A DNA stretch of 64,000 nt from a virus (taxonomy: Duplodnaviria; Heunggongvirae; Uroviricota; Caudoviricetes): the IMG/VR virus record IMGVR_UViG_2851955134_000009; one strand, 5' to 3'. The translations under genes were made by a program, and so were the position numbers. This document shows positions 10,646 through 60,289 of the stretch, in pieces. Below the pieces are notes generated by a model. That model searched no databases and was not told where the DNA came from. It worked only from the letters and a program-made list of their open reading frames with translations. The first letter of the stretch is position 1. Every line of letters starts with the position of its first letter.

Positions 10646-10658
10646 GGGAGTGATTGGT

Positions 10659-22341: not shown

Positions 22342-22956
22342 TCAGCCGGCAAGCGCCAGTGGCGCTTCCGGCCAGCTGATTTCAGGTGCCTTGCTGATAT
22401 CCAGTGCGTTCAGCTCGTCGATATAATCCAGCACGGCGTTCAGTTTTGCCGTTTCTTCTGGTTTCAGACTGCGACCTGCCCGCAGTTTGAGGTTGATGAG
22501 GTCGATGGACTTCATCGCCTGATCCACCCGTTCCTGGCGTTGCAGTCTGGCAACCTCCAGCTCTGCGGCTCGCTGCCGTTCAGTATCGGTTACCCACGCC
22601 TCACCGTTCCAGGTATCCCATGGCGTGGCCGGCTGTTTTGTGGTGGTGTCCGCCGGGTAATCACCCGGCTGGGTAATCTGAACGGGAGTACCGTTCTCCG
22701 TGCTGTATACCGTCTCGCCGCGGTGATCAGGCACATGTTCCCACCCGTTCAGCGTGGCAGTCCGGCAAACCACGTAACCCGAAATTGCCTCCGGCGGTGC
22801 ATCGGCGCACGAATGTGCCGGAGTACCCACCCCAAGGGCGAGATACTCCACAGAGGATGAGGTGTATTCCCGGGTTTCCTCGTCATAGTGATATACAGTG
22901 ATATCGCCCGCTACAGTGGCGATACCGTTTTCATCCAGAACTGCAGTGTTACTCAT
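22342..22956 (-). CDS. Tail fibre assembly protein (Mu U-like chaperone)
   Basis: 204 aa, immediately downstream of the fibre gene, inside the invertible segment. Confidence 0.8.
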   Translation of the reverse strand: MSNTAVLDENGIATVAGDITVYHYDEETREYTSSSVEYLALGVGTPAHSCADAPPEAISGYVVCRTATLNGWEHVPDHRGETVYSTENGTPVQITQPGDYPADTTTKQPATPWDTWNGEAWVTDTERQRAAELEVARLQRQERVDQAMKSIDLINLKLRAGRSLKPEETAKLNAVLDYIDELNALDISKAPEISWPEAPLALAG

Positions 22957-24725
22957 TAAACTGCCCTCACAATGTAATTAAGTGCAATGCTACGGGGTCT
23001 GACAGTGATACCCTTCGCATACCCGCTTCTGATAGAGGTCAGAATAGTAGCCTGCATACCATTGTCTGACATTGCCACGACAGGATCGCTGAATGTTGTC
23101 CCGTCCGGCATTTTAAAGCTGCCCTCACGAAGGTCTGTAATGGAATCTTCATTGTTGAATCCCATGCCGACTATCCCCGAGGTTCCCGTAGTGTCCTGGT
23201 TATAATAATCCAGCATTGCTGTTCTTAACAGCGTTGCCCCTTGTGCGGACAGCAACTTACGTCCTGTATCAACTTTGCGCCCGTCGTCCCATCCACGGAT
23301 AAACTCACCGCGCAAATCGGGAAGACGGAGGGTCGGGTAGGCTCTGGCCAGAACAGGATATTGTTCTTTTGTAAAGGCGCGCCCGTCGCACTTTAACCAG
23401 CCTGCTGGCGGTGTGGCGGTGGGCCACGGAACAGGCACACCAACGGGTAGCGCCGAGCCTTCTCCTAAACCAAGGTAATTGAGGACATCTTTTATACTGC
23501 CCTTAGCGATAATAGCGCGACCAATAGCTGTAAGGGTTGCCAGCGCTGCGCGGTCTGCTCCGGTAAAATAAGGCAACCGATCTGCTGCAGTGGCAAGTCC
23601 TGCCAGAGCAGTGAGCGTGGCATCTGCCGGTTGTTTTCCGTTTGCCAGATCGTATGCAGCCTTGACCGCTTTCGGTGTGGCGGCCAGTATTTCAGACGTG
23701 CTGTTGATGGCACTGCTCAGTTGTACGGTGCCTTTTGCCGTCAGCGAGGCCGCAGGCACTCCCGTTATCTGACTCCACGGGTGAGTGTGGCTGGCAGGCG
23801 CCTTGCCGGCTGCCAGGTCGTATGCAGCCTTGACCGCTTTCGGTGTGGCGGCCAGCGTTTCAGACGTGCTGTTGATGGCACTGCTCAGTTGTACGATCCC
23901 TTTACGGGTCGTTGTTGCATCCTGGGCTGTGTATTTTCCCCGGGCCAGATCATACGCGATTTTCACAGCCTTCGGCGTGGCAGCCTCAGTTTCTGATTGA
24001 CTGTCCGTGGCGCTGCTCAGTTGTACGGTGCCTTTTGCCGTCAGTGAAGCCGCAGGCACTCCCGTTATCTGACTCCACGGGTGAGTGTGGCTGGCAGGCG
24101 CCTTGCCGGCTGCCAGGTCGTATGCAGCCTTGACCGCTTTCGGTGTGGCGGCCAGCGTTTCAGACGTGCTGTTGATGGCACTGCTCAGTTGTACGATCCC
24201 TTTACGGGTCGTTGTTGCATCCTGGGCTGTGTATTTTCCCCGGGCCAGATCATACGCGATTTTCACAGCCTTCGGCGTGGCAGCCTCAGTTTCTGATTGA
24301 CTGTCCGTGGCGCTGCTCAGTTGTACGGTGCCTTTTGCCGTCAGTGAAGCCGCAGGCACTCCCGTTATCTGACTCCACGGGTGAGTGTGGCTGGCAGGCG
24401 CCTTGCCGGCTGCCAGGTCGTATGCAGCCTTGACCGCTTTTGGTGTGGCGGCCAGCGTTTCAGAGGTGCTGTTGGTGGCACTGCTCAGTTGGGTGAACCC
24501 CTTAGCTGTCAGTGTCGCGTCCGGGTGGTTACGGGAACGTACGTGTTCAGCCAGTGACTGTGCGGCTTCCTCCGTTTTCTTCTTCAGCCATTTCGTCCTG
24601 TTTGCCAGTTGCCGGGGGGCTCGATTTGATATCCCGTCTGCACCACCCAGAACCGGATCTGATGTCTCCAGTTGATAGATATTTTCTTCCCACTTTTCTG
24701 TTTCATTCAGGTTTCCCATAATCAA
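22956..24725 (-). CDS. Tail fibre protein (Mu S-like) with repetitive shaft
   Basis: 589 aa; about 100-aa repeats (GTVQLSSA..S.SET.AATPKAVK.AYDLA); C-terminal 145 aa lies inside the invertible segment. Confidence 0.85.
   Translation of the reverse strand: MIMGNLNETEKWEENIYQLETSDPVLGGADGISNRAPRQLANRTKWLKKKTEEAAQSLAEHVRSRNHPDATLTAKGFTQLSSATNSTSETLAATPKAVKAAYDLAAGKAPASHTHPWSQITGVPAASLTAKGTVQLSSATDSQSETEAATPKAVKIAYDLARGKYTAQDATTTRKGIVQLSSAINSTSETLAATPKAVKAAYDLAAGKAPASHTHPWSQITGVPAASLTAKGTVQLSSATDSQSETEAATPKAVKIAYDLARGKYTAQDATTTRKGIVQLSSAINSTSETLAATPKAVKAAYDLAAGKAPASHTHPWSQITGVPAASLTAKGTVQLSSAINSTSEILAATPKAVKAAYDLANGKQPADATLTALAGLATAADRLPYFTGADRAALATLTAIGRAIIAKGSIKDVLNYLGLGEGSALPVGVPVPWPTATPPAGWLKCDGRAFTKEQYPVLARAYPTLRLPDLRGEFIRGWDDGRKVDTGRKLLSAQGATLLRTAMLDYYNQDTTGTSGIVGMGFNNEDSITDLREGSFKMPDGTTFSDPVVAMSDNGMQATILTSIRSGYAKGITVRPRSIALNYIVRAV
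23394..23426. repeat. Inverted repeat, right crossover site of invertible segment
   Basis: Reverse complement of 21916..21948, located inside the fibre gene at the constant/variable junction. Confidence 0.8.
23640..24480. repeat. 300-bp tandem repeats within the tail-fibre gene
   Basis: 23761..24060 and 24061..24360 are identical, with diverged partial copies on both sides. Confidence 0.85.
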
Positions 24726-46503: not shown

Positions 46504-47247
46504 ATGACGCACACACTGAATCCGGTCATCACTGTCACTGTGTCCGGTCCTGTGGGCAGCGGTAAAAGTTACGTACTGGCGCGGATAGAAGAGATGGTGA
46601 AACAGGAACTCGGAAACAGCGTCATTGTCGATGCTGCTGACGTGGAGAATGAGCGCCGTATGAGTGGCGATGATCTGACGACCTGGCAGAAGCCACGGGC
46701 TGGCACAGTGATCAGGCTGGAGGAATACACGGGACAGGGCCTGTTGTCATACGGCGAGGAGCGTATCTGTCGGACGAATGAGCTGCTGGATGTTATATGC
46801 CCCGCGGGCCGGCAACCCTGGATACTGCCCGATGCACTGCATGCCACCATTGCGGCACTGATGACAGTTTACGATCAGGAACTGCTCATGAAGGAGTTAC
46901 GTAAACTCACCGGTCAGCCAACAGAATGTTTTTCGGCCCCGAAGTACGGGAAGCAGGAACACATCCCGGTGAACACAATCCCCGTTAACCAGCCTCCCCG
47001 GTTCTTCGACGAATACATTCTGACACCGGAAAATAAAGCTGAGCATGAAGAGATCAAAGAGGCGTTGTTCCGGGAAATCAGGAAGATTGCTGAAATGCAA
47101 CTGGGGGGCGGGCTGGACAGAGTGATGGCGAGAGGAGAATGGGAGTCGCTGTTTGAAAGAGTTTCCCCGGAATTACTGCCCCTCGCACTGGCTATCGGGA
47201 TTATGCAGACAGCAGATAAACCTCACTTACGTTCATCAAACACGTAG
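46504..47247 (+). CDS. P-loop NTPase of unknown function (accessory)
   Basis: 247 aa; Walker A GPVGSGKS at residues 15-22; lies between lysis genes and repressor. Confidence 0.55.
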   Translation: MTHTLNPVITVTVSGPVGSGKSYVLARIEEMVKQELGNSVIVDAADVENERRMSGDDLTTWQKPRAGTVIRLEEYTGQGLLSYGEERICRTNELLDVICPAGRQPWILPDALHATIAALMTVYDQELLMKELRKLTGQPTECFSAPKYGKQEHIPVNTIPVNQPPRFFDEYILTPENKAEHEEIKEALFREIRKIAEMQLGGGLDRVMARGEWESLFERVSPELLPLALAIGIMQTADKPHLRSSNT

Positions 47248-47300
47248 CGCAGAATATTTTGCCGGTGAGTACATAAAAATCATCATTTAAGGAGTGCATC

Positions 47301-47516
47301 ATGAATCCCCGATTAACGTTAACAGAACATCAGCGCCGTGCTGAAGCAGTGAACAATGTTCTGGAAGATATTATCCGGTTACATCGCGGAGAACTGAGTG
47401 TCTGTCGTGCCGCTTTTCATTTTCAGGGAATACAAAAGCAGTTTGATACTTCTGTTTTTGCAGAAGGTATTACTTATGCCCTGGACCGGATAAGGTCAGA
47501 AAATCGCCCCGGATAA
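47301..47516 (+). CDS. Hypothetical small protein
   Basis: 71 aa; AAGGAG RBS. Confidence 0.5.
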   Translation: MNPRLTLTEHQRRAEAVNNVLEDIIRLHRGELSVCRAAFHFQGIQKQFDTSVFAEGITYALDRIRSENRPG

Positions 47517-47707
47517 TCCCTAAACCACATTAACAGAAATCCCACTATCCCTGCCGCATCATGAAAGAACGACCAGCCCGGTGCTTCGGACCCACCGGGC
47601 TGGCCATCGTCCCACAGAAGTGGCTGTGAGCCGACCGAGGTTCAGTCAGTCTCGCGAGACCAGACTAGCCTGCCATATTTTTAATAATTGTAAAAGGCTT
47701 ACAGATT

Positions 47708-48472
47708 ATGAAAATGCAGACATTACCCATCGTTCCATGGATTGGTGGCAAACGCCGCCTTGCAAAACACATTCTGCCGCTGTTTCCGGCGCATGAATGT
47801 TATGTGGAGCCGTTTTGTGGGGCAGCAGCGCTCTATTTTCTTAAGACACCCGGCAAGATCGAAGTCATCAATGATATCAACGGTGAACTGGTGAATCTGT
47901 ACCGGGTGGTAAAGCATCACCTGGAAGAATTTGTCCGCCAGTTCAAATGGGCGCTGGTCAGCCGTCAGATCTACAAATGGCTGCAGATCACCCCGGAAGA
48001 AACACTGACGGATATCCAGCGTGCGGCACGGTTCTACTACCTTCAGAAGCAGGCGTTTGGCGGCAAGGTGGCAGAGCACAGCTTCGGTACCTCCACCACA
48101 TCCCCGCCACGCTTCAACCTGCTGCGTATTGAAGAAGAACTGTCAGCGGCACACCTGCGGCTTTCCAGAACAGTCATAGAACACATGGACTGGCAACAGT
48201 GCATTGAGCGTTATGATCGTCCGCACACGCTGTTCTACTGCGACCCACCGTACCTGGGTACGGAAGGCTATGGTGTGGATTTTCCTGAAGGGAACTACTC
48301 GCGGCTGGCAGAGCTGGCCCGGTGCATCAGAGGAAAAATGATAATTTCGGTGAACGACATCCCGCAGATGCGCGAGGTGTTCACTGGACTGAACATACAG
48401 ACAGTGAATATCAACTACAGTCTGGCGGGTAAATCCACGCCGCGCCGTGAACTGCTAATCTGCAACTTCTGA
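47708..48472 (+). CDS. DNA N6-adenine methyltransferase (Dam-like, orphan)
   Basis: 254 aa; PWIGGKRRL N-terminal motif and DPPY catalytic motif (LFYCDPPYLGT); no restriction partner. Confidence 0.85.
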   Translation: MKMQTLPIVPWIGGKRRLAKHILPLFPAHECYVEPFCGAAALYFLKTPGKIEVINDINGELVNLYRVVKHHLEEFVRQFKWALVSRQIYKWLQITPEETLTDIQRAARFYYLQKQAFGGKVAEHSFGTSTTSPPRFNLLRIEEELSAAHLRLSRTVIEHMDWQQCIERYDRPHTLFYCDPPYLGTEGYGVDFPEGNYSRLAELARCIRGKMIISVNDIPQMREVFTGLNIQTVNINYSLAGKSTPRRELLICNF

Positions 48473-48588
48473 AACAAAACCGGAAAGCACAATGCTTTCC
48501 GGTAAACCAAACAACTTCCACTATGTCACTGGCGATGTTTTCTGAAATCATCCAGATCAACCACCTGTCTTTTGTGTCCGGGTCAGTA

Positions 48589-48936
48589 TCAGCCTGCGAT
48601 TTTTCCTGGTTTTGGCTGAGTATAGAAGCGCCCAACCTCAAGAAATGAGCGTCGTTGCTCCGGAGTCATTTCATCAAATGCGTCCATTAATTTCTGTTTG
48701 TCTGGTGACATTTTTGGGATAGCGTTGGTAGTTGCATCCCCTCTCTGTCCCGTAACAACGTAAAGCACGTCAAGCCCCAAAGTAGCCCAAATTGCCAAAG
48801 CATCTGCTCCGGGAGCGGATTCATCCTTTTCCCACCGCAATTGGCTTTTATAGGATGCCCCCACCAATTCAGCAAACTCAGACTGACTAAATCCTAGGCG
48901 GTTTCGTTCTTCTTTTAATCGTGAACCAAGTGACAT
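48589..48936 (-). CDS. Repressor-like HTH protein (XRE/Cro-C1 type)
   Basis: 115 aa; HTH (RLGFSQSEFAELVGASYKSQLRWE); divergent from Ner-like early operon. Confidence 0.7.
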   Translation of the reverse strand: MSLGSRLKEERNRLGFSQSEFAELVGASYKSQLRWEKDESAPGADALAIWATLGLDVLYVVTGQRGDATTNAIPKMSPDKQKLMDAFDEMTPEQRRSFLEVGRFYTQPKPGKIAG

Positions 48937-49029
48937 TTTTGTCCCAATATCTATTTACATATCCCATTATTGGGATAATAATCTAACAAATATAAAGCAA
49001 ACATCATTGCACTAAACAAGGAGACAACA
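48937..49029. promoter_or_regulatory. Divergent promoter/operator region between repressor and early operon
   Basis: AT-rich; inverted repeat CCCAATA (48943..48949) / TATTGGG (48968..48974); GGAG RBS before early gene. Confidence 0.45.
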
Positions 49030-49218
49030 ATGACTGCAGACCAGGTCAAAGCTCATTTCCGTCGCAATGGGATCACTTTTACCCAGTGGGCAAAACAGAA
49101 CAACTACACCAGAGCGGAGGTTTACCGCGTACTGAATGGCCAGGTAAAAGCGAACTACGGCAAAGCCCATGAAATCGCTGTCAAGCTGGGATTAAAAACC
49201 ATCACTGACGCCGCTTAA
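49030..49218 (+). CDS. Ner/Cro-like small DNA-binding protein
   Basis: 62 aa, first early gene; HTH-like NYTRAEVYRVLNGQ. Confidence 0.55.
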   Translation: MTADQVKAHFRRNGITFTQWAKQNNYTRAEVYRVLNGQVKANYGKAHEIAVKLGLKTITDAA

Positions 49219-49271
49219 AAAGATACAGCATACGAAAAAGATTATCACATATTGAAAAAAGAGGTGTGCAG

Positions 49272-49580
49272 ATGAGTAAGACGAATGTTTCAAGCTCCGG
49301 CAGTCGCATCCTCCGGGTACTAAAAGCGCTGCGTGGTCATGCTCTGAACGGTATTTCCAACGGTGAACTGGCAGCAGCACTGCACGAGTCACCGGCGAAC
49401 ATCAACCGGGCACTCAACACCCTCATTGAAGAAGGGCTGGCTCTGAAACTGGAGAACGGACGTTTCGCACCGGGCATTCAGTTGCTGCAGATCGCCATGG
49501 CCCACAGTAACGAGATGGCACGTGCACAGGATCGTATTAACGAAATTAACCAACGTGTTATTTCAGGAAGTCGTTTGTAA
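49272..49580 (+). CDS. Hypothetical DNA-binding protein
   Basis: ATG at 49272 with GAGG RBS; 102 aa. Confidence 0.5.
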   Translation: MSKTNVSSSGSRILRVLKALRGHALNGISNGELAAALHESPANINRALNTLIEEGLALKLENGRFAPGIQLLQIAMAHSNEMARAQDRINEINQRVISGSRL

Positions 49581-49590
49581 GGAGTAATCA

Positions 49591-50508
49591 ATGGGACGCA
49601 CCAAATCACCGGTTAGCACTGAACTGAACGTCGAGGTACCGCTGTCGGATGATCTCAATGTCAGTCTGAACGCCATGACACAGCATCGCATGGAAATCAT
49701 GCAACAGTTCGGCGATGGTCTGCCCTATGAGCGCGATCGTGTTGTCCATGAGGCACGCTTTTATATGGCACAGAGCGCTGAGGCCATGCTGGAGGCAGGT
49801 AAACGGCTAATAATCCTTAAGGAAAATGAACCACACGGGGAGTTTATAAAGATTCTTGAAAGTGAGTTGGGGCTGGCATACCGGACATCTGTGAGAATGA
49901 TGCAGGCATCGACAAAATACTTATCCCCGGCGCTGAAACCAAATGTGCCAACGTTGGCACATTTGGGAAAAGCCAAACTTTTCGAATTAATGACAGAAGA
50001 CGACGAAGAGCTTGCCGAACTGGCCGACGGCGGTACGGTTGCCGGCCTGACGCTTGACGATGTTGATCGCATGTCAGTACGTGAACTTCGTCAGGCCCTG
50101 CGCGAAGCGCGCGAAACCAATGCAGCACAACAGCGTGTTCTAGCCGACAAAAATGAAAAAATCGACTCACTCTCCACCAGGCTGGAGAAAAAATCCCGTA
50201 TTCAACCGCCTGAGCCTGATGAAGAGGTGAAGAAGCTGCGGGCGGAAGTGACCGCATTAGCGGTTGAGGCGGAATCTGCCATCGCCGTCCGGCTCTCCGG
50301 TGCCTTTGAAACCCTGTGTGAATACTGCAGTAAAAACATGATTGATACCCCCAGAGATTTCATGGCCGGTCTGGTCTGCCAGATTGAACGCAGTGTTCAT
50401 GCATTGCGTGAGACGTTCGACCTTGATGCCGCACCATCGGGTAACGATGTCCCCGCATGGCTGACCGAACCGGAGCCTGAAATCAACCGACCGGAGGGCA
50501 TGCGTTAA
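49591..50508 (+). CDS. Hypothetical early protein
   Basis: 305 aa, acidic, coiled-coil segment. Confidence 0.55.
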   Translation: MGRTKSPVSTELNVEVPLSDDLNVSLNAMTQHRMEIMQQFGDGLPYERDRVVHEARFYMAQSAEAMLEAGKRLIILKENEPHGEFIKILESELGLAYRTSVRMMQASTKYLSPALKPNVPTLAHLGKAKLFELMTEDDEELAELADGGTVAGLTLDDVDRMSVRELRQALREARETNAAQQRVLADKNEKIDSLSTRLEKKSRIQPPEPDEEVKKLRAEVTALAVEAESAIAVRLSGAFETLCEYCSKNMIDTPRDFMAGLVCQIERSVHALRETFDLDAAPSGNDVPAWLTEPEPEINRPEGMR

Positions 50509-50825
50509 TGAACACGAATAATACACAAAATATCCTGATGGACAGCCCGGAAGCACTGGGGCACGCACTGTGTAATCTGCTGCCGGAGATGGTGCAGGGT
50601 TTCCGCGTGGTGACACCTTCCGGTGAAATCTGCGTACCCGCACAGGAGGCGCATCCGTTTGTACTGACGATGGAAGTGATGCTGATGCAGCAGATAAGAC
50701 GTCTGCAGCATCAGTCAGCATTGCGCCCGGCAGTTGCGCCGCAACCGGTAAATAACGTGGTGAAAACCTGCGATGGCGAAACCCTGCGCGACCGTGCCAG
50801 AAAAATTGCCGCCAGAATCGGATAA
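50508..50825 (+). CDS. Hypothetical protein
   Basis: 105 aa; TAATG overlap. Confidence 0.45.
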   Translation: MNTNNTQNILMDSPEALGHALCNLLPEMVQGFRVVTPSGEICVPAQEAHPFVLTMEVMLMQQIRRLQHQSALRPAVAPQPVNNVVKTCDGETLRDRARKIAARIG

Positions 50826-50840
50826 CAGGGAAGACAAGCT

Positions 50841-52610
50841 ATGACCCCGGCACTGACTGAAAAACTTGTTGAAACAGCCCGCGCGGCACGTAATGCGGGG
50901 CATGGTAAACGCGGTGCAATATACGACGCTGCCTGTGCTGAACTTGGCATGTCCCGCGCCACTCTGCTGCGCAGGCTGAAGGAGGTCTCTGTGACTGATA
51001 AACGCAAAAAACGCGCCGATGCCGGACGCAGCACCCTGACCCGCGACGAAGCCGCGCTGATATCTGCCACACTACGTGAGGCCACCCGCAAGAACGGTAA
51101 GCGTCTCTATTCCATCGCGGATGCAGTGGAAACCCTGCGGGCTAACGGCTTTATCTCCGCAGGCAGAACAGATGAAACCACCGGTGAGTTTTTCCCGTTG
51201 TCCGAAGATGCCATCAGTCGTGCCCTGCGTAACTATGGCCTGCACCCGGAACAACTGGATGCCCCTGCACCGCATACCGAAGTGGCCAGTCTGCACCCCA
51301 ATCATGTCTGGCAGATTGACGCCTCACTCTGCACGCTTTACTACCTGAGCAATGGACATAAAGGGCTGCAGGTGATGGACAGCGCGAAATTCTACAAAAA
51401 CAAGCCCGCTAACCTTGCCCGTATCGCCAGTGACCGCGTGTGGAGTTACGAGATTACCGACCATGCCAGCGGCTGGATTTACGTTGAGTATGTGACGGGT
51501 GCGGAATCCGGTGAGAACCTGTGTTCTGTGCTTATCAACGCCATGCAGGAGCGTGGCGGCGCAGACGTGCTGCACGGCGTGCCAAAAATACTCTATCTCG
51601 ACCCCGGCTCGGCAAACACCGCGGGTATGACGAAAAACATGTGCCGCTCACTGGGCATCGACCTGATAGCGCACAAGCCGCATAACGCCCGCGCCACCGG
51701 ACAGGTGGAAAAGGCGCGTGACATTATCGAACGCAAGCTGGAGCCGGGTCTGAAGTTCCGGCCGGTTCACAGTCTGGAAGAACTCAACGCGCTGGCCGCG
51801 AAATGGCGCAGCCACTTTAACGCCACGGCTGTTCACAGCCGCCACGGTAAAACCCGCACGGATATCTGGCTGAAGATTACTGCTGAGCAGCTGAAAAAAG
51901 CGCCTTCCGTTGAGGTATGTCGTGAACTGGCTGTGGCGGCACCAGAACTCCGCAAAGTCACGCCAAAACTTCGTGTCTCGTTCCGGGGCACTGAATTTGA
52001 CGTATCAACGGTACCGGGCGTACTGGTCGGTGAAAAACTGATGATTACCCGTAACCCGTGGCGCAGCGATGTGGCACAGGTGGTTCTGACCGGTGAGGAC
52101 GGCCACGAGACGTTCTTCCTGGTCGAAGAGGTCAGAAAGAACGAGTTTGGCTTTGCTGAAGGCGCGGCGGTATTTGGCGAAAGTTACAAAGCCCTGCCGG
52201 AAACCCCGGCGCAGATGGCGGCAAAAGAAACCGAAGCGCTGGTCACCGGTACAGACAACGCCGCAGATGCAGCTGCCGCACGCAAGGCGAAGGCGCTGCC
52301 GTTCGGCGGGCGGCTTGACCCGTATAAACATATTGATGACGCCACACTTCCGGCCTGTATACCGAAGCGTGGTCAGGCCTCTGACGTACGCGGACCGCGC
52401 ACTGAACAGCGTCCCATGACTCATGTGGAGGCCGCGAAAGCCCTGCGCGGGAAGTTTAGCGCAAACGGCCTGACCTGGACGCCGGAACATTACCGCCAGT
52501 TAACAGCACAGTACCCGGACGGCGTACCGGAAGCCGCACTGGATGAAGTCATGGCCACGCTGACCACGCCGGCCCGCAGCAGCGTTATCAGCATTGTTAA
52601 CGGCAACTGA
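50841..52610 (+). CDS. DDE transposase (retroviral-integrase-type core), transposable-phage A-like
   Basis: 589 aa; N-terminal HTH; core with HVWQIDAS, YLDPGSANT and downstream E; followed by AAA+ partner. Confidence 0.8.
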   Translation: MTPALTEKLVETARAARNAGHGKRGAIYDAACAELGMSRATLLRRLKEVSVTDKRKKRADAGRSTLTRDEAALISATLREATRKNGKRLYSIADAVETLRANGFISAGRTDETTGEFFPLSEDAISRALRNYGLHPEQLDAPAPHTEVASLHPNHVWQIDASLCTLYYLSNGHKGLQVMDSAKFYKNKPANLARIASDRVWSYEITDHASGWIYVEYVTGAESGENLCSVLINAMQERGGADVLHGVPKILYLDPGSANTAGMTKNMCRSLGIDLIAHKPHNARATGQVEKARDIIERKLEPGLKFRPVHSLEELNALAAKWRSHFNATAVHSRHGKTRTDIWLKITAEQLKKAPSVEVCRELAVAAPELRKVTPKLRVSFRGTEFDVSTVPGVLVGEKLMITRNPWRSDVAQVVLTGEDGHETFFLVEEVRKNEFGFAEGAAVFGESYKALPETPAQMAAKETEALVTGTDNAADAAAARKAKALPFGGRLDPYKHIDDATLPACIPKRGQASDVRGPRTEQRPMTHVEAAKALRGKFSANGLTWTPEHYRQLTAQYPDGVPEAALDEVMATLTTPARSSVISIVNGN

Positions 52611-52620
52611 GGAGGGAAAC

Positions 52621-53787
52621 ATGCTGGTACTGAAGCAGCAACTGAAAGAGGCCCGTATTCCACAGGCGGTGGCGGCGAGAGCTGTCGATGTTTCTGAGGC
52701 CACGCTGGCCCAGATTGTGAATCATAACGCGTGGCCCCGCACCAGCCCCGGAGAAGTGCGCCGGCGTCTTGCGTCCTGGCTGGAAAGTCAGGGGATTGAT
52801 ACAACGAAGAGTTTTGATGCTGTACAGGGCGCGGCCACGCCCCGTACAGCGGGTACCACAGATAAAACGAGCCTCAGTGAGGAAGAGAATATGTTACTCA
52901 AAAAACAGGTGTTATTTCCAGCAACCAAAAAAGCGTTTGGTCTTTTCCGTGACCCGTTCGCCGATGAAGCCATGCAGGGTTCTGATGATGTGTTCACCAC
53001 CCCGGACATTCGCTACGTGCGTGAGGCGCTGTACCAGACAGCCCGTCATGGTGGGTTTATGGCCGTCATCGGTGAGTCCGGTGCGGGTAAATCCACGCTG
53101 CGCCGCGACCTGACTGAACGTATTAACCGCGAGAATGCGCCGGTAATTGTTATCGAGCCATACATCATCGCTATGGAAGACAACGATGTGAAAGGGAAAA
53201 CCCTGAAGGCAGCAGCTATTGCCGAAGCCATTATCAGTACCATCGCACCACTGGAAAGCATCAGACGCAGTCAGGACGCCCGCTTTCGCCAGTTGCATCG
53301 CGTCCTGAAAGACAGCAGCCAGGCGGGGTTCAGCCACGTTCTGGTGATTGAGGAGGCCCACAGTCTGCCCATTCCGACACTGAAACACCTCAAACGCTTT
53401 TTTGAGCTGGAGTCCGGTTTCAAAAAACTGCTGTCCATCGTGCTGATTGGCCAGCCGGAACTGGCGACAAAACTGTCTGAACGCAATATGGAAGTCCGTG
53501 AAGTCGTTCAGCGCTGTGAGGTGGTCGAACTTCTGCCTCTGGACAATAACCTTGAAGAATTTCTGACGTTCAAACTGCAACGGGCCGGTAAACAACTGAC
53601 GGACATTATGGACGCCAGCGCAGTGGATGCCATACGTGCCCGCCTGAGCAATCCGGGAAGTCATCGTAAAAATATGGTCAGCCTGCTGTATCCGCTGGCC
53701 GTCAGTAACCTGGTAATAGCCGCCATGAATCTGGCCGCTGAAATCGGGGTTCCACAGGTCAACGCTGACGTTGTCAAAGGAGTTTAA
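52621..53787 (+). CDS. AAA+ ATPase transposition helper (Mu B-like)
   Basis: 388 aa; N-terminal HTH; Walker A GESGAGKST; Walker B VLVIEEAH. Confidence 0.8.
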   Translation: MLVLKQQLKEARIPQAVAARAVDVSEATLAQIVNHNAWPRTSPGEVRRRLASWLESQGIDTTKSFDAVQGAATPRTAGTTDKTSLSEEENMLLKKQVLFPATKKAFGLFRDPFADEAMQGSDDVFTTPDIRYVREALYQTARHGGFMAVIGESGAGKSTLRRDLTERINRENAPVIVIEPYIIAMEDNDVKGKTLKAAAIAEAIISTIAPLESIRRSQDARFRQLHRVLKDSSQAGFSHVLVIEEAHSLPIPTLKHLKRFFELESGFKKLLSIVLIGQPELATKLSERNMEVREVVQRCEVVELLPLDNNLEEFLTFKLQRAGKQLTDIMDASAVDAIRARLSNPGSHRKNMVSLLYPLAVSNLVIAAMNLAAEIGVPQVNADVVKGV

Positions 53788-53789
53788 TA

Positions 53790-54059
53790 ATGAAATCCAC
53801 CACAGGTATCAACCAGCAAATCAGCAAAGTGCAGTCAGCCATTATGGCGCTTAAGGCGACGAACACGGATGTACAAAGCATCACCATCAGGGGTAACAAA
53901 CCTGTCATCCGCGTTTCCCGGAGTGCGCATTGCATGCGCATGCTTGAGCAGGGAAAGGCCTGTTATCTGTATACCGGACATGACCACAGGGGATATTTCC
54001 GTCAGGGCGTTTTCGAACTGCACGGCTGTCGCGTCGTGTGGCCGGAATCTTTGTGGTAA
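53790..54059 (+). CDS. Hypothetical protein
   Basis: 89-aa ORF directly after the ATPase gene. Confidence 0.45.
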   Translation: MKSTTGINQQISKVQSAIMALKATNTDVQSITIRGNKPVIRVSRSAHCMRMLEQGKACYLYTGHDHRGYFRQGVFELHGCRVVWPESLW

Positions 54060-54086
54060 TCAGCACAACCGGAGAAATCATAAAAT

Positions 54087-54617
54087 ATGGCAAAAAGTAC
54101 AAAAGGGGCAAAACGTATCAAGGCCGCAGCGGCACTCTGGGTACCAGGGACACGCGAAGAGGTCATTGAGGGAATCAGACTACTCGGTGACGCACAACGT
54201 GAACTGGTCAGGGCTGAAACAGAAATGAATGACGCCATTGGCGATATCACCGCACGTTATGCCCCGCTCACCGAGAGCCTGAAAAAACGCATGGCCGAAC
54301 TGCAGTCCGGTATCCAGACATGGTGTGAGGCGCACCGTGATGAACTGACCGGCAACGGGAAGGTGAAGTTCGCTAACCTTACCACCGGCGAGGTGCAGTG
54401 GCGAAACCGTCCGCCATCAGTCAGTATCCGTGGGGCGGATAATGTTATTGAATTACTGAGACGTCTGGGGCTTGAGCGCTTTATTCGTGTAAAAGAGGAA
54501 ATAAATAAAGACGCTATCCTGAATGAAAAAGAGGCCGTGAAAAATATTCCCGGTATTTCCATTAAAAGCGACATTGAGGATTTTTCAATAATTCCTTTTG
54601 AGCAGGATGTGCAGTAA
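54087..54617 (+). CDS. gam: Gam-like host-nuclease inhibitor
   Basis: 176 aa; strong similarity to Mu Gam as recalled (RIKAAAA...TEMNDAI...WCEANRDELT...SIRG...FIR.K.EINK.AIL...SDIEDFSIIPFEQ). Confidence 0.85.
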   Translation: MAKSTKGAKRIKAAAALWVPGTREEVIEGIRLLGDAQRELVRAETEMNDAIGDITARYAPLTESLKKRMAELQSGIQTWCEAHRDELTGNGKVKFANLTTGEVQWRNRPPSVSIRGADNVIELLRRLGLERFIRVKEEINKDAILNEKEAVKNIPGISIKSDIEDFSIIPFEQDVQ

Positions 54618-54714
54618 ACACACCACGTTAATTATTTAATAAAAACATTTTCTTTTTTATTCCGGCGTCAGCGCCGCGGGCTTCTGCACGCCGGAAACAG
54701 AGGAGAATTAAATC

Positions 54715-54909
54715 ATGATATTTAAATGTATTCAGTGCGAGAGGGATATAACAGCCCTGCGTTTTCACAGCGCCATCGCCGTGATGTCCGGTAAATACCA
54801 CATCCCTGCGGTACGCGTCACCCTGGTCTGCCCGTACTGCAGCCAGCATTTTTCGGCGGACGTGCCCGTCATGGAATTCTCCCGCCCTGACAGGGAGGAC
54901 GCGCAATGA
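54715..54909 (+). CDS. Small zinc-ribbon protein
   Basis: 64 aa with CxxC (CIQC) and CxxC (CPYC); GAGGAG RBS. Confidence 0.5.
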   Translation: MIFKCIQCERDITALRFHSAIAVMSGKYHIPAVRVTLVCPYCSQHFSADVPVMEFSRPDREDAQ

Positions 54910-55178
54910 TTACCCCACAGGAAGCACGACAGCGCACCCGAACCCTTGTTGAACACTATGTCAACGAGTGTGAATGCCGCAACCTCACCGATGTGAAGCA
55001 CGTCCTGACGGCACTAATCAGTATGGCCGCTCAGGCCATTGTGGCAACCAACGGAAAGGCGGCTGCCCTGCAGGTACTGGTGAACACACTCACCCACACG
55101 GCAGAGCATGAGGTGCCGTACCGGATGGAAACCACTGCAGAAGGCGGCCTGCACATCACCGTCAGCCGGAAGCACTGA
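54906..55178 (+). CDS. Hypothetical protein
   Basis: 90 aa, ATGA overlap. Confidence 0.45.
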   Translation: MITPQEARQRTRTLVEHYVNECECRNLTDVKHVLTALISMAAQAIVATNGKAAALQVLVNTLTHTAEHEVPYRMETTAEGGLHITVSRKH

Positions 55179-55187
55179 GGGCGCGGC

Positions 55188-55484
55188 ATGACACGGAACA
55201 CCATACTCACCCGCACCGCCCTCTACCGTCTGGCCCTGCAGCGTTTCGGGCCGGACGCACAGGCCCTGAAACTGACAGAAGAGGCCGCTGAACTGGCGGC
55301 CAGTGCTGCCCGCAATCTGAACGGACAGGGCAGCGAAAGTGACCTCGCGGCAGAGCTGGCAGACGTGGAAATCATGACAGAGCAATTGCGCCTTCAGGGA
55401 ATGGACCGGCTGATTGACTTCCACAAACAGAAAAAACTGGAACGTCTGGCTGCACGACTGGGCGTGATTTACACGAACGAGTAA
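55188..55484 (+). CDS. MazG-like nucleotide pyrophosphohydrolase domain protein (tentative)
   Basis: 98 aa with paired acidic helices KLTEEAAELA ... AELADVEIM typical of the MazG/NTP-PPase fold. Confidence 0.45.
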   Translation: MTRNTILTRTALYRLALQRFGPDAQALKLTEEAAELAASAARNLNGQGSESDLAAELADVEIMTEQLRLQGMDRLIDFHKQKKLERLAARLGVIYTNE

Positions 55485-55498
55485 CCGGGAGGCATTCA

Positions 55499-55714
55499 AT
55501 GGCTGACATACTCAGGGAAATCACCGCATGGACACTGATTCTTACTGGCCTGGCGACATGCCTCAGTGCGGGAGCAGCCCTGGCTGCCCTGCTGATGCAC
55601 ATAACAACACAGTGGTTATGGGAAAAGCTTAAAGCAGCATACAGCCTGAAAGAGCTGTCCGACGCTGTCCGGGCATGGAAACGGCAGAAAAATACCGGAG
55701 ATACAGAACAATGA
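55499..55714 (+). CDS. Small membrane protein
   Basis: 71 aa, one TM helix. Confidence 0.45.
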   Translation: MADILREITAWTLILTGLATCLSAGAALAALLMHITTQWLWEKLKAAYSLKELSDAVRAWKRQKNTGDTEQ

Positions 55715-56394
55715 CAGACCAGAATAAACACATTGAGAAACTGAAAAAGTTGCTGGCGCTGGCCGCATCCGGCAACCCGCACGAGGCCGCTCTGGCACTG
55801 CGCCGAGCCCGTAAACTGATGGATGTTCACGGCATCACACATTCCGACATTGCTATGAGTGATATTGATGAAACCATCAGTCATTACTGGCCGACAGGCA
55901 GTCTCCGTCCACCGCGCTACATGCTGGGCCTGATGAACATCATCCGCGAGGCATTTGGTGTTAACTCCATCATTCACCCCGGCACGCATCCGTCTGTGGG
56001 GTTCTACGGTAACCGGGAACGAGCGGCACTGGCTGCGTACACCTGGGAAGTGCTGGTCCGCCAACTGAAAAAGGCGCGTCAGCAGTATATCAGCGCACAG
56101 AACAAAAGAATAAAAAACGCCACCCGTACCAGCCGTGGAGACCAGTTTGCTGAAGGCTGGGTACTGGCCGTTATCAGTGAAATACAGTCCTTTGCCCTGA
56201 CCGATGATGAGCGTGAACTGATGCAACAGTGGCTGGAACATAAATACCCGCAAACGCAAACCACCAGGGCGCGTAAACCGGGAAGAAGCCGCAATGGCGA
56301 CGTCTCGCGCTATGCGGGGTTTCGTGAAGGGCAGAACGTCAGACTGCACCGCCCGGTCAGTGGGCAGGAACAGCAGAAACTGGAGGCCAGATGA
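55711..56394 (+). CDS. Hypothetical protein (DUF2786-like N-terminus)
   Basis: ATG at 55711 (ATGA overlap); N-terminal KLKKLLALAASGNPHEAA motif. Confidence 0.5.
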   Translation: MTDQNKHIEKLKKLLALAASGNPHEAALALRRARKLMDVHGITHSDIAMSDIDETISHYWPTGSLRPPRYMLGLMNIIREAFGVNSIIHPGTHPSVGFYGNRERAALAAYTWEVLVRQLKKARQQYISAQNKRIKNATRTSRGDQFAEGWVLAVISEIQSFALTDDERELMQQWLEHKYPQTQTTRARKPGRSRNGDVSRYAGFREGQNVRLHRPVSGQEQQKLEAR

Positions 56395-56621
56395 TTACGT
56401 TATCAGGTAACAGCCGGAAATTAAAAGCCTGCCGAATATCTCCCAGATACCTTTTTGCCCGCGCCTTTTTTAAGAACGTCAGGCCGGGGATCACAATTGG
56501 TGTTATTGCCGGACGCGAACAGGTTGAAAAATACATGTCAGGTGCATGGTGGAATAAAGACCCTGTCATTGCTGCCCGTAATATTCATATCAGTTGGGGG
56601 GATATTCAGAATGACTGCTGA
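56391..56621 (+). CDS. Hypothetical protein
   Basis: 76 aa, ATGA overlap. Confidence 0.35.
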   Translation: MITLSGNSRKLKACRISPRYLFARAFFKNVRPGITIGVIAGREQVEKYMSGAWWNKDPVIAARNIHISWGDIQNDC

Positions 56622-56826
56622 ATCTGTTGTATGTGCCCTGTTCTGGTATTGTTTTGTCGGTTGGTGTACTGCTGAACTGCACCGCCGTTCAGGGTTTTAT
56701 TCACGTTACAGTGGTGCCGGTTACTGGATTAGCTGGTCGGTGATGTTCCTGTGCTGGCCTGTGGCATTTCCTTTATATGTCTATTATATCAGTGATGCAG
56801 GCAGAAGGAGCAACGATGATGACTAA
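56611..56826 (+). CDS. Small membrane protein
   Basis: Internal ATG at 56611 with G-rich RBS; two TM helices. Confidence 0.4.
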   Translation: MTAESVVCALFWYCFVGWCTAELHRRSGFYSRYSGAGYWISWSVMFLCWPVAFPLYVYYISDAGRRSNDDD

Positions 56827-57268
56827 ACAACGTCTTATCCAGCTTATCCATATTGCCCGTAATGAACTGGGTATGGATGAAGACACCTACCGCCAGATGT
56901 TACAGGGGCTGACCGGTAAAGCCTCAACCAAAGGAATGGATACCACACAACTAAACTGCGTGCTGGAATCCATGAAAAAGAAAGGCTTTCGCGTTAAACC
57001 AGCCAGAAAAGCCAGCTCCGGTTTACCGCTGGATAACCATCCGCAGTCCAGGAAAATTCGTGCGCTATGGCTTGAAATGGCTGCTGCCGGCATTGTTCGT
57101 GACCGTTCAGAAAATGCATTAGCGAGGTGGATCAAGCGGGAAACGGGCATCAGCGCCCTGCGCTGGCTCAGTACTGAACAGGCAGGCAGTGTTATTGAGA
57201 AACTGAAGAAGTGGCAGCACAGAGCTGCGGGAGTAAAACATGAGCGACCTGAATCAGTTTCGAAGTAA
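56816..57268 (+). CDS. gemA: GemA-like regulatory protein (Mu gp16 family)
   Basis: 150 aa; MTKQRLIQLIHIARNELGMDEDTYRQML...; AGGAG RBS. Confidence 0.65.
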   Translation: MMTKQRLIQLIHIARNELGMDEDTYRQMLQGLTGKASTKGMDTTQLNCVLESMKKKGFRVKPARKASSGLPLDNHPQSRKIRALWLEMAAAGIVRDRSENALARWIKRETGISALRWLSTEQAGSVIEKLKKWQHRAAGVKHERPESVSK

Positions 57269-57638
57269 AGGGCCGGAACTCCTGGTGGAACTGGCACAGC
57301 ATACCTCTGAGACCGTTCGCGAGATTATTGATATTGAGCCCGCAATTGCCGACCAGATTGGTCAGGCCGTCGCGAACCGCATGATGCAGGTCTGGGGCGG
57401 GCAAAACGTTTATTTCCCGATGGGCATGGTATGGAAGGTCAGTCAGCGCGACCGGGAAATCTTCAGGGAGTTTAACGGACGTAACCACCATGAACTGGCC
57501 CGCAAATTTGGTGTTTCGCTTCAGTGGGTCTACAGCGTGGTTAAGCGGGTAAGAAAAGAAGAACTGGATCGGATGCAGGGCAGGTTGTTTGATGAAGATC
57601 TGCCAGAGGAGACGAAAGACGTTAACAAATCCAGATAA
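57240..57638 (+). CDS. mor: Mor-like middle-operon transcriptional activator
   Basis: 132 aa; C-terminal HTH (ELARKFGVSLQWVYSVVKR); position after gemA as in Mu. Confidence 0.65.
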   Translation: MSDLNQFRSKGPELLVELAQHTSETVREIIDIEPAIADQIGQAVANRMMQVWGGQNVYFPMGMVWKVSQRDREIFREFNGRNHHELARKFGVSLQWVYSVVKRVRKEELDRMQGRLFDEDLPEETKDVNKSR

Positions 57639-57682
57639 TTCCTGCTTGTTAAAGTCCTTTCAAAAATCTCCTTATTGTATAA

Positions 57683-57714
57683 AAGCACGGTAGACCCCTT
57701 ACCGTGCTTTTTTT
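57683..57714 (+). terminator. Rho-independent terminator ending the early operon
   Basis: Perfect 10-bp stem AAGCACGGTA/TACCGTGCTT, 7-nt loop, followed by T7. Confidence 0.8.
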
Positions 57715-57752
57715 ATGCTCTCTCTTTAGTATTCAGGATGCAGGGAGAAAAT

Positions 57753-58385
57753 ATGTTTGACGTTTCGTTGTTAAATCTGCCATGGGCAACACTGGTGACC
57801 CTGACCAGTGGCTATATTGGGTATTTTATTGCGAATGTGGGACTGAAGGATCACCACAAGCCCATTGAGGTGACTTTTTCTTCGCTGATTTTTGGCCTGA
57901 CAGCAATGATGGCTTACCAGGCTGTTATGTGGGCAGGTCTGAATGCCTGGCTGGCAACACCACCAGCACTTCTGTGTGCCGTTACATGCGGTGCGTGGTG
58001 GCGCAGGTACGGTCGCAAATGGATGTACAGATTACTGTGGAATAATGATATTTCATGGTCTGACGATACCAGCTCAGCATGGCAGGCAATGTTTGATCAA
58101 ACAGGCTTCAGCGTTACCGAGGTCAGAGTGATTCTTCGCGATGGTTCCGGTATGATGTCACGGCTGCCAGGGAACTTTGAAGAGTGGCCTAACGGTCCGT
58201 TTACCCTGGGGAATAAAGGCGATATGGTTCTTTACGTCACGCACAGCAGCCCTTCAGGCAGTAACGAATGGGAAGAGTATAAAGGCGTGGTTGATAAGTA
58301 CTGGGGAGCTCTGGCAACCTATATTCCAGCAGATCAGATTGCCAGAGTGGAGATCAGGCGCGTTCGTGCAACGAACGATGAATGA
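57753..58385 (+). CDS. Membrane protein moron at the element left end
   Basis: ATG at 57753 with GGGAG RBS; 210 aa; 3 predicted TM helices at N-terminus; separated from early operon by a strong terminator. Confidence 0.6.
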   Translation: MFDVSLLNLPWATLVTLTSGYIGYFIANVGLKDHHKPIEVTFSSLIFGLTAMMAYQAVMWAGLNAWLATPPALLCAVTCGAWWRRYGRKWMYRLLWNNDISWSDDTSSAWQAMFDQTGFSVTEVRVILRDGSGMMSRLPGNFEEWPNGPFTLGNKGDMVLYVTHSSPSGSNEWEEYKGVVDKYWGALATYIPADQIARVEIRRVRATNDE

Positions 58386-58689
58386 TGTTTATTTTTTCCC
58401 TGGGGCAGGGGCTGCCGGCATAGTGGTTTTATTGGCAGAGGAAGACGATTCTCCTTTTCTACCGGAATCGCGCTCGAACGTCACGATGTGCTTGCTTTTG
58501 GGCTTTTCTGAGTAATCCAGGCTATCATGCTTATTGTTTTGAGTAGTCATTGGAATCATCCTTTTTGTTGCGGGTCATGTTTCAGCAAACTCGATTCTAA
58601 GTTGCCAGGAAGGATGATTTCAATGCCCGACTTATCTATCGTATAGCGGAAAAGAATTTCAGTTCTGTTCACCAGAACCCATGTTAACC

Positions 58690-58746
58690 CACTCCAATTC
58701 GTTATTTATCTCACGGATCCCCCTTCATTTATCTCATGTCTGATCA
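58690..58746. repeat. Left-end terminal repeat region (transposase binding sites)
   Basis: Reverse complement reads TGATCAGACATGAGATAAATGA...GTGAGATAAATAA, same motif spacing as the right end. Confidence 0.7.
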
Positions 58747-58771
58747 ATTATTGCGTGTCAGGAGCGAAACA

Positions 58772-59203
58772 GTGAACAAACCACAATCCCTGCGCCACGC
58801 CCTCAATAAAGCGGTGCCTTATGTCCGCAATAACCCGGACAAACTGCATCTGTTTGTGGATAACGGTTCGCTGGTTGCCACGGGGGCCAGCTCCATGTCA
58901 TGGGAGTACCGCTACACCCTGAACGTGGTGATTGAGGATTTCAGCGGCGACCAGAATCTGCTGATGGCCCCGGTTTTGCTGTGGCTGCGTGATAACCAGC
59001 CCGATGCCATCAATAACCCGGCGTTACGGGAAAAGCTATTCACCTTTGAGGTGGATATTCTGCGCAACGATGTCTGTGATATCAGCCTCAACCTGCAACT
59101 GACGGAGCGTGTGCTGGTCAGCACTGACGGCAGTGTGTCGAGCGTTGAAGCTATAGCGGAACCTGATGAACCTGAAGAAATGTGGACGGTGAAACGTGGC
59201 TGA
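58772..59203 (+). CDS. R: Tail completion protein (P2 gpR-like)
   Basis: GTG at 58772 with AGGAG RBS; the track start at 58736 lies inside the Mu-like end and is probably not native. Confidence 0.75.
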   Translation: MNKPQSLRHALNKAVPYVRNNPDKLHLFVDNGSLVATGASSMSWEYRYTLNVVIEDFSGDQNLLMAPVLLWLRDNQPDAINNPALREKLFTFEVDILRNDVCDISLNLQLTERVLVSTDGSVSSVEAIAEPDEPEEMWTVKRG

Positions 59204-59642
59204 ACTGCAGAAAGTGGACGACTGGCTGAGTGCCTTGCTGGCGAATCTGGAGCCAGCCGCAAGAAGCCGCATGATGCGCCAGCTGGCGCAGGAACTACGC
59301 CGGACACAGCAGCAAAATATCAGAATGCAGCGCAATCCAGATGGCAGCAGTTATGAACCGCGACGGGTAACAGCACGCAGTAAAAAAGGCCGTATCAAAC
59401 GTCAGATGTTTGCAAAGCTGCGCACCACAAAATACCTGAAAACTTCCGCCAGCGCCGACTCTGCCAGCGTGCAGTTTGAAGGCAAGGTGCAGCGCATTGC
59501 CCGCGTTCACCATTACGGCCTGCGAGATCGCGTCAGTCGTAAGGGACCGGAGGTGCGTTACGCAGAGCGTCGCCTTCTGGGTGTAAATGATGATGTTGAG
59601 GCAATGACCCGCGACATGATTCTGCAATGGCTGGCGGGGTGA
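59196..59642 (+). CDS. S: Tail completion protein (P2 gpS-like)
   Basis: 148 aa, overlapping R stop. Confidence 0.75.
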   Translation: MAELQKVDDWLSALLANLEPAARSRMMRQLAQELRRTQQQNIRMQRNPDGSSYEPRRVTARSKKGRIKRQMFAKLRTTKYLKTSASADSASVQFEGKVQRIARVHHYGLRDRVSRKGPEVRYAERRLLGVNDDVEAMTRDMILQWLAG

Positions 59643-59710
59643 TCTTTGTATCAGCACTGATACAAGTTGCAGCACTGCCGCCTTTCTTCCCCTGATGGCA
59701 ACCTTTCCCT

Positions 59711-60289
59711 ATGAACGCACAATTAACCGAAATCATGCGCCTTATCACCAACCTGATCCGCACAGGGGTAGTCACCGAAGTGGACAGGGAAAACTGGCTT
59801 TGCCGGGTGAAAACGGGCGAGCTTGAAACCAACTGGATCAGCTGGCTGACGCTGCGTGCCGGGAATGCCCGTACATGGTGGCGACCATCGGAAGGTGAGC
59901 AGGTGGTGCTGCTGAGTCTGGGCGGCAATCTGGAAACCGCCTTTGCGCTGCCCGCTGTCTATTCGAATCAGTTCGCACCACCGTCGACGTCGGCGGACGC
60001 CTGCGTGACAGAACATCCTGACGGTGGCTGGTTTGAATACGAACCCGCCACCGGGCGCTGGTATGTCAGGGGCATCAAATCAATGGTCATTGAGGCTGCT
60101 GACAACATCACCATGAAAACCAGTGAGTTTGTACTGGAGGCTGACCGCACGCGCATTAACAGCGAAGTGGTGATCAATGGTGGCGTTACCCAGGGCGGCG
60201 GAGCGATGAGTTCTAACGGGATCGTGGTTGATGCGCATCAGCATACTGGCGTCCTGAAAGGCGGCGATACAACCGGAGGCCCGGTATGA
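59711..60289 (+). CDS. V: Baseplate spike protein (P2 gpV-like)
   Basis: 192 aa, V-W-J-I order. Confidence 0.8.
   Translation: MNAQLTEIMRLITNLIRTGVVTEVDRENWLCRVKTGELETNWISWLTLRAGNARTWWRPSEGEQVVLLSLGGNLETAFALPAVYSNQFAPPSTSADACVTEHPDGGWFEYEPATGRWYVRGIKSMVIEAADNITMKTSEFVLEADRTRINSEVVINGGVTQGGGAMSSNGIVVDAHQHTGVLKGGDTTGGPV

Follow-up and report, generated by a model that had tools for sequence, protein, structure and literature searches.

A probable semi-essential early region with a retained head and a mosaic tail in a BcepMu-like prophage

Nine small genes at positions 53790-56826 of IMG/VR record IMGVR_UViG_2851955134_000009 (a 64,000-nucleotide stretch of DNA referred to here as the window) lie between the transposition genes and gemA/mor of a transposable prophage. 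We conclude, with a probability of about 85%, that these genes form the semi-essential part of the early operon in a BcepMu-like (Bcepmuvirus) element. The block is a region of a known kind which had been correctly described, and is the BcepMu-lineage counterpart of the kil-to-gemA region of phage Mu. It is made up of a retained head of three genes, encoding a Kil-like protein, Gam and a zinc-ribbon protein, and a mosaic tail of six genes. The sequence, the gene calls and the names Gam, nucleoside triphosphate (NTP) pyrophosphohydrolase and DUF2786 were already public in RefSeq and GenBank. What is added here is a possible link to Kil, the head-and-tail pattern, the constant zinc-ribbon neighbour of the end-protection gene and model-based support at the level of the fold for the MazG assignment.

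Gene organization and relationship to BcepMu and Mu

Nine open reading frames (ORFs) on the + strand tile the interval exactly (Table 1). Each of the nine proteins matched a PHROG family (E 1e-12 to 1e-77), so that the ORFs can be taken as genuine, conserved genes rather than chance occurrences, and the same nine coding sequences are annotated by RefSeq in a locus of Escherichia coli strain FDN-4 (99.9% identity). An initial annotation, made from the letters of the window and a list of its ORFs, had counted about nine small genes between the transposition genes and gemA/mor and had recognized the classic semi-essential position. The ORF listing, RefSeq and PHROG agree on the gene count, and the block does occupy the site of the Mu kil-to-gemA region. 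Adjacent genes either overlap, by 4-11 nt, or leave gaps of 2-27 nt, the sole exception being a 97-nt spacer after gam.

A consensus scan placed a promoter-like site at 48954-48982, in the gap separating the ner-like gene from the divergent repressor, and a terminator-like hairpin beyond mor. Because the genes run in the same direction, are tightly packed and are bracketed by these two sites, we infer that the nine genes are most likely co-transcribed with the ner-like gene, A, B, GemA and Mor. Following induction or infection a joint early transcript of ~8.7 kb would run from a promoter near the first site to the hairpin, and such an operon would deliver the transposition proteins alongside host-modifying factors as is classical for Mu-type phages.

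The prophage spans 21152-58746 of the window (37,595 bp) and its termini, which read TGAT...ATCA, contain repeated GATAAATG-type motifs. Against Escherichia phage PhiKM (PQ738613), classed by GenBank as Bcepmuvirus, the block aligns over 94% of its length at 97.7% identity. Gene order in PhiKM and in the matching E. coli prophages is identical to that found here, while the tm71b allele and the right-end cargo allele differ. The BcepMu homologues are gp09 (transposase), gp08 (ATPase), gp02 (GemA), gp01 (Mor), gp17 (repressor), gp16 (ner-like gene) and gp10 (DUF3102 gene). In the BcepMu early region (gp01-gp09) the interval holds a DUF3164 gene in place of Gam together with HU-like and SSB-like genes and a pyrophosphatase, gp06 (phrog_5658), which has no detectable similarity to MazG98. 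By single-sequence phmmer BcepMu has no counterpart of Zn64, o90, the DUF2786 protein, o76, tm71 or tm71b.

The semi-essential region of Mu (kil ... gam ... gemA-mor; Mup05-Mup17) has the same position between B and gemA/mor, the same strand and the same tight packing. Matches to Mu by phmmer were limited to Gam, GemA and Mor. The A and B proteins of Mu belong to different families from those found here, which are an rve/Tn552-type transposase and an ExeA-type ATPase. In Mu, B is followed directly by kil, and the small CxxC proteins gp6 and gp13 are encoded in the equivalent interval. The other seven genes of the block have no detectable counterpart in Mu, and there is no MazG-type or DUF2786 gene in the Mu region.

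Table 1. Features of the early region, with gene presence (tblastn) in 32 close and 10 distant complete relatives
Feature	Position	Strand	Description and matches	Close	Distant
A	50841-52610	+	DDE transposase, upstream of block		
B	52621-53787	+	Transposition ATPase (ExeA/AAA family), left boundary; RefSeq; phmmer against BcepMu gp08 2e-145		
o89	53790-54059	+	89-amino-acid basic protein, probable remote Mu Kil (gp5) homologue; RefSeq 'HI_1482 family'; phrog_2041 3e-36	32/32	10/10
Gam	54087-54617	+	176 amino acids, Mu-type double-strand DNA end-binding host-nuclease inhibitor family; PF07352, phrog_491	32/32	10/10
Conserved hairpin	54647-54708	+	gam-to-Zn64 spacer; GC-rich inner stem 54660-54696		
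Zn64	54715-54909	+	64 amino acids, zinc-ribbon-like, C5xxC8 ... C39xxC42; phrog_3401 1e-40	32/32	3/10
o90	54906-55178	+	90 amino acids; phrog_3691 3.6e-55	32/32	3/10
MazG98	55188-55484	+	98 amino acids, single-domain all-alpha NTP pyrophosphohydrolase (MazG superfamily); phrog_2245 2.8e-34	32/32	7/10
tm71	55499-55714	+	71-amino-acid single-pass membrane protein, charged C-terminal tail; phrog_3958 1e-41	25/32	0/10
DUF2786 + DUF7168 protein	55711-56394	+	227 amino acids; both Pfam domains above cut-off	32/32	7/10
o76	56391-56621	+	76-amino-acid basic protein; phrog_3681 1.8e-52	30/32	0/10
tm71b	56611-56826	+	71 amino acids, aromatic-rich, two probable membrane segments; phrog_6436 1e-12	32/32 (18 at 80% identity or more; two alleles)	3/10
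GemA	56819-57268	+	Right boundary; Pfam GemA 2e-40; phmmer matches Mu and BcepMu GemA		
Mor	57240-57638	+	Right boundary; phmmer matches Mu and BcepMu Mor		
Terminator-like hairpin	57681-57711	+	13-bp stem followed by T-run; consensus scan, pattern match only		

Conservation of the block

Eighty IMG/VR loci were fetched through Gam and the genes in them were scored by tblastn. Complete relatives numbered 42, of which 32 were close (Gam at least 88% identical) and 10 distant (Gam 72%-79%, A 58%-92%). The presence of each gene is given in Table 1. The o89 gene accompanied gam, the gene by which the loci were chosen, in every close and every distant relative. Among the seven distant relatives which were negative for Zn64 by tblastn, three (L044, L048, L053) were read by ORF and all three were found to carry a diverged copy directly after gam, matching phrog_3401 at 4e-25 to 3e-13. 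The six genes from o90 to tm71b were each missing from some or all of the distant relatives, and the B-to-GemA interval measured 2.8 to 4.3 kb in close relatives and 1.3 to 3.3 kb in distant ones. In 32 loci where Gam was 61%-63% identical (L054-L085) none of the other eight genes was detected by tblastn. The gene counts, taken with the diverged zinc-ribbon copies, divide the block into a retained head and a mosaic tail. The initial annotation had treated the entire region as accessory; this holds for the six tail genes, whereas the first three, present in almost every relative sampled, are not freely accessory.

The prophage block was found in 632 of 5,426 complete E. coli genomes, roughly 12%, and was always chromosomal. 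With this prevalence, induction would bring on expression of the early genes in many strains, clinical as well as commensal. Candidates for host-takeover and counter-defence screens are the Kil-like protein, the zinc-ribbon protein, the compact MazG-type enzyme and the widespread DUF2786/DUF7168 protein. The literature searched yielded no experimental work on the nine genes, Gam excepted.

The retained head

Gam matched PF07352 at 139.6 bits (cut-off 28.3, 9.9e-41) over profile positions 1-148 of 149, and also matched phrog_491 (5.5e-73) and Mu Gam itself (1e-65, phmmer). This full-length match above the curated cut-off establishes the family membership which had been proposed from the translation. 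Mu Gam shields linear DNA ends from RecBCD. By analogy the protein described here would bind the linear ends of the infecting genome and block RecBCD-type exonucleases. A DUF3164 protein takes the position of Gam in two relatives, Klebsiella phage KP12 (L004 3610-4221; Pfam 3e-80), where the same zinc-ribbon gene still follows, and BcepMu, where it is gp05 (L087 1928-2545). The exchange points to DUF3164 and Gam as functional substitutes for each other.

The four cysteines of Zn64 (C5, C8, C39, C42) are invariant in 13 unique sequences, and the diverged phrog_3401 copies in L044, L048 and L053 have both CxxC pairs as well. Curated zinc-ribbon profiles gave sub-threshold scores only (Sgf11 19.2 against 26.4, YnfU 14 against 27). 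The two invariant pairs in a protein of 64 residues uphold the earlier prediction of a small zinc-binding protein. The PhiKM record annotates an opposite-strand ORF (L003 6839-7060) where RefSeq and family conservation place the zinc-ribbon gene; this call is probably a mis-annotation by which the zinc-ribbon gene was omitted. We considered the converse, that Zn64 is the mis-called ORF, and dropped it since family members that have diverged are kept at this very position in other loci.

The spacer between gam and Zn64 contains a hairpin with a folding energy of -29.5 kcal/mol (z -3.4), and none of 200 shuffled sequences folded as well. In the outer stem a U-tract base-pairs with the Shine-Dalgarno sequence GAGGAG of Zn64. 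The hairpin is kept in relatives with Gam 78%-79% identical, with one compensatory C:G to U:A double change and several single mismatches elsewhere, and it had no Rfam match. An intrinsic terminator was considered and rejected because on the + strand the U-tract precedes the stem, while on the - strand the tract after the stem is A-rich. Searches of window positions 47000-60000 against Rfam at permissive thresholds returned zero matches.

The first gene of the block had not been singled out earlier. Directly after B stand kil in Mu, gp07 in BcepMu and o89 in the present phage. After its own family, the next-best PHROG matches of o89 were the Kil families phrog_6381 (E 0.019) and phrog_2743, that of Mu Kil itself (E 0.11), both aligned over nearly the full length with weak E-values. 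In the reverse direction the sole non-Kil match of Mu Kil among 38,880 families was phrog_2041 (E 0.2), to which BcepMu gp07 also gave a weak match (E 0.008). A local hidden Markov model (HMM) of o89 ranked Mu Kil first among 37 proteins, at only 6.6 bits. All three proteins share the motif (K/R)P.I, and o89 and Mu Kil have in common a C-terminal GC(R/Q)(V/I)(V/I)W which is represented in BcepMu gp07 by the weaker SVRVTW. A sequence search of the PDB with o89 returned nothing. Remote homology to Mu Kil (gp5) is the best reading of o89 because the matches are reciprocal and the position is shared, each score being weak, and on balance we lean slightly towards it. At an early stage of the lytic cycle a Kil-like protein may interfere with division of the host or with functions of its envelope.

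The tail and MazG98

MazG98 belongs to the MazG superfamily. The family which it matched, phrog_2245, is named 'nucleoside triphosphate pyrophosphohydrolase', and RefSeq gives the identical protein this name in some genomes. It contains the EExxE...ExxD motif (E31-E32-x-x-E35 and E56-x-x-D59) which is the signature of all-alpha NTP pyrophosphohydrolases. In an alignment of 70 sequences, extending down to 31% identity, E31 and D59 were invariant and E32, E35 and E56 were conserved in at least 90%. Among these 70 family members 18 matched Pfam MazG (E up to 0.01), four PRA-PH and three MazG-like. Close homologues were confined to Enterobacterales; a profile search of 1.84 billion representatives returned 10,432 relatives, mostly of 90-110 amino acids. 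The predicted structure is a helical bundle like that of MazG/HisE/dUTPase-like enzymes. PDB sequence searches with the single sequence and with its close family gave noise only (IWS1, KaiA, designed coils), and the best match of the 70-sequence profile, 5ie9 at E 0.011, was mixed with coiled-coil artefacts. As a sequence family MazG98 is distinct from the small MazG-type enzymes (S. solfataricus 1vmg, integron iMazG 2q5z, HisE 3c90, RS21-C6/DCTPP1).

The MazG-like call which had been made on this 98-residue protein from its paired acidic helices is thus right at the level of the superfamily, where motif, fold and family matches converge. The profile check proposed for it gave a divided answer, favourable for phrog_2245 and for 18 of the 70 relatives but sub-threshold for the Pfam and NCBIfam scores of the protein itself (NCBIfam hisI, 14.3 against a cut-off of 42.7). 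With its predicted metal site intact, MazG98 would hydrolyse an NTP-type substrate to the monophosphate and pyrophosphate, and its role would most likely be to condition the nucleotide pool during replicative transposition. HMMs of the MazG98 family do not detect BcepMu gp06, so that the two pyrophosphatases are regarded as analogues for which orthology could not be demonstrated.

The largest gene of the block, which like o89 goes beyond the earlier description, encodes a protein matching DUF2786 (PF10979; 42.9 bits against 23.9) and DUF7168 (PF23771; 92.1 against 25.5). Homologues were present in 178 phage records, mainly of Ralstonia and Pseudomonas phages and including the Mu-like B3 and JBD25. 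In strain FDN-4 a RefSeq DUF2786 protein adjoins ParB in a SPI-7-type island. A PDB sequence search with the protein of this block returned nothing.

Small membrane proteins had been anticipated in the region and two were recovered. In tm71 a Kyte-Doolittle 19-mer maximum of 1.98 at residues 13-31 marks one clear transmembrane segment. In tm71b two aromatic-rich segments (residues 5-23 and 38-56) were favourable on the Wimley-White octanol scale (19-mers at -5.8 and -14.6 kcal/mol), with a Kyte-Doolittle maximum of 1.49, just under the 1.6 threshold. Several close relatives lack tm71 or carry a 67%-70% identical allele in its stead, and it is absent from distant ones. Two alleles of tm71b circulate in E. 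coli, ~92% and ~38%-41% identical to the copy found here. For o90 and o76 no match was found beyond their PHROG families, o90 matching none of Pfam, NCBIfam and PADLOC; o76 has a 72% identical copy in KP12. The nine proteins and GemA gave zero above-cut-off matches to NCBIfam.

Alternative interpretations

Several observations weigh against the interpretation of this interval as the semi-essential segment of an early operon, or against its component assignments. The promoter and the terminator are consensus matches only. The Kil link consists of weak reciprocal profile matches (E 0.008 to 0.2) and synteny. MazG98 fell below the curated cut-offs (Pfam PRA-PH, 14.5 against 21.3 bits; no match to Pfam MazG), a Foldseek search with it gave nothing significant (best E 0.19), and only one of its five AlphaFold2 models was confident (84, against 54-65). 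The replacement of Gam by DUF3164 in KP12 and BcepMu shows that even Gam is replaceable. Lastly, the block is 95%-99% identical in 595 of the 632 E. coli carriers, and a segment so nearly invariant is not a fast-turnover island at that scale. This uniformity across most carriers, together with the retention of the Kil-like, Gam and zinc-ribbon genes in the sampled relatives which share A and B (KP12, with DUF3164 for Gam, excepted), is what would be expected if the block were core transposition or replication machinery and not accessory. We consider this very unlikely, as six of the nine genes are missing from some or all distant relatives in which A and B are homologous, and the interval varies from 1.3 to 4.3 kb with unrelated alternatives inside it. 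BcepMu has HU-like, SSB-like and DUF3164 genes and a different pyrophosphatase at this site, and among the genes of the block Mu shares only Gam. The equivalent region of Mu is dispensable for growth. More improbable still is a role of the small genes as defence or superinfection-exclusion cargo which the prophage expresses to the benefit of the lysogen. Small membrane proteins are common as exclusion factors and tm71b exists as two very different alleles, but PADLOC (5,027 models, E up to 0.1) matched none of the nine proteins or GemA, and the genes lie inside the putative early lytic operon downstream of a repressor-controlled promoter region. The consensus scan gave no internal + strand promoter-like site, and a separate cargo gene is found after the mor terminator where morons would be expected.

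Within the semi-essential reading the role of MazG98 can be weighed separately, since its sequence is compatible both with cleaning or reshaping of the deoxynucleoside triphosphate (dNTP) pool and with removal of an alarmone or signalling nucleotide and does not decide between them. The precedent for the latter is Atd1 of Pectobacterium phage PcCB7V, a single-domain MazG-like protein with ppGpp-hydrolysing activity that gives protection from the toxicity of TIR-STING and retron-TIR (bioRxiv 10.1101/2022.06.09.495361). MazG98 resembles Atd1 in being phage-encoded, in having a single MazG-type catalytic domain and in its catalytic motif, and it is encoded in an early setting beside a nuclease inhibitor. 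One relative, L048, carries in its tail a second gene of a 'host nuclease inhibitor' family (phrog_1518). By analogy with Atd1 an anti-defence role for genes of the block can be proposed, and the primary action of MazG98 might be on (p)ppGpp or a different signalling nucleotide, hydrolysis of which would blunt abortive infection, in place of dNTP conditioning. Against this, tblastn of MazG98 with 50,697 phage records (E up to 1e-3) matched four BcepMu-like phages and no Pectobacterium phage, and thus by this search, which is not a direct comparison of the two sequences, MazG98 is not a close relative of Atd1. Its closest structural matches were S. solfataricus MazG, HisE and iMazG, which are house-cleaning or metabolic enzymes. 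A cyanophage MazG, by the title of the report on it, lacks (p)ppGpp hydrolysis and is said to prefer dGTP and dCTP, suggesting by analogy that (p)ppGpp is not an obligatory substrate of MazG proteins from phages. We therefore regard an Atd1-like primary function as unlikely and retain nucleotide-pool conditioning as the preferred role. A broader proposal is that the head may be a functional unit in which the zinc-ribbon protein partners the end-binding protein, with the MazG-type enzyme and/or the DUF2786/DUF7168 protein as uncharacterised counter-defence factors. The zinc-ribbon gene does keep its place in KP12 although DUF3164 replaces Gam there; we consider this proposal, taken as a whole, quite unlikely.

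Insertion site and neighbouring genes

The prophage is flanked by a 6-bp direct repeat, ATTATT, at window positions 21146-21151 and 58747-58752. It lies inside a P2-like prophage, between Rz/Rz1-type lysis (spanin) genes at 20647-21075 and tail gene R at 58736-59203. The reconstructed empty site, consisting of the flanks and one copy of the repeat, gave an uninterrupted 100% match in many E. coli P2-like prophages. The BcepMu-like prophage has arrived by transposition into this P2-like prophage. Through the insertion the start of gene R has been exchanged for phage-end sequence, and the P2 late operon is probably disrupted.

A 210-amino-acid membrane protein is encoded at 57753-58385 (+), in the stretch from mor to the right prophage end. 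It matched phrog_12870 and had no match in Pfam or PADLOC. Among relatives that are otherwise near-identical only some have the gene, as is the pattern for a moron or cargo gene, and in FDN-4 RefSeq annotates a small opposite-strand coding sequence just downstream of it (~window 58389-58550). At the left prophage end (21230-21931 (-) and 22956-24725 (-)) a Gin-type DNA invertase (phrog_125, 1e-95) adjoins tail-fibre and fibre-assembly genes, which suggests an invertible host-range segment like that of Mu.

The P2-like prophage carries a three-gene cassette of low GC content (0.33-0.40) at a P2 hotspot, 10614-13610 (+). Its genes encode an ABC-3C CTD9 effector-domain protein, a middle component MC5 with a weak LmuC match, and an LmuB-type ABC ATPase (PADLOC 1e-42), by which the cassette is classed as a predicted Lamassu/ABC-3C-type defence system. 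Its neighbours are replication gene A of the P2-like prophage (6430-8844; Pfam Phage_GPA) on one side and, on the other, packaging ORFs at 13676-14704 and 14701-16467, the latter being the large terminase by PHROG. A 558-amino-acid protein encoded at 1136-2812 (-), where GC content is ~0.37, matched PADLOC PD-Lambda-1 at 2e-120 (DUF4041 and T5orf172/MUG113 domains). Its gene adjoins a CI-type repressor gene at 2833-3429 (-), presumably that of the P2-like prophage.

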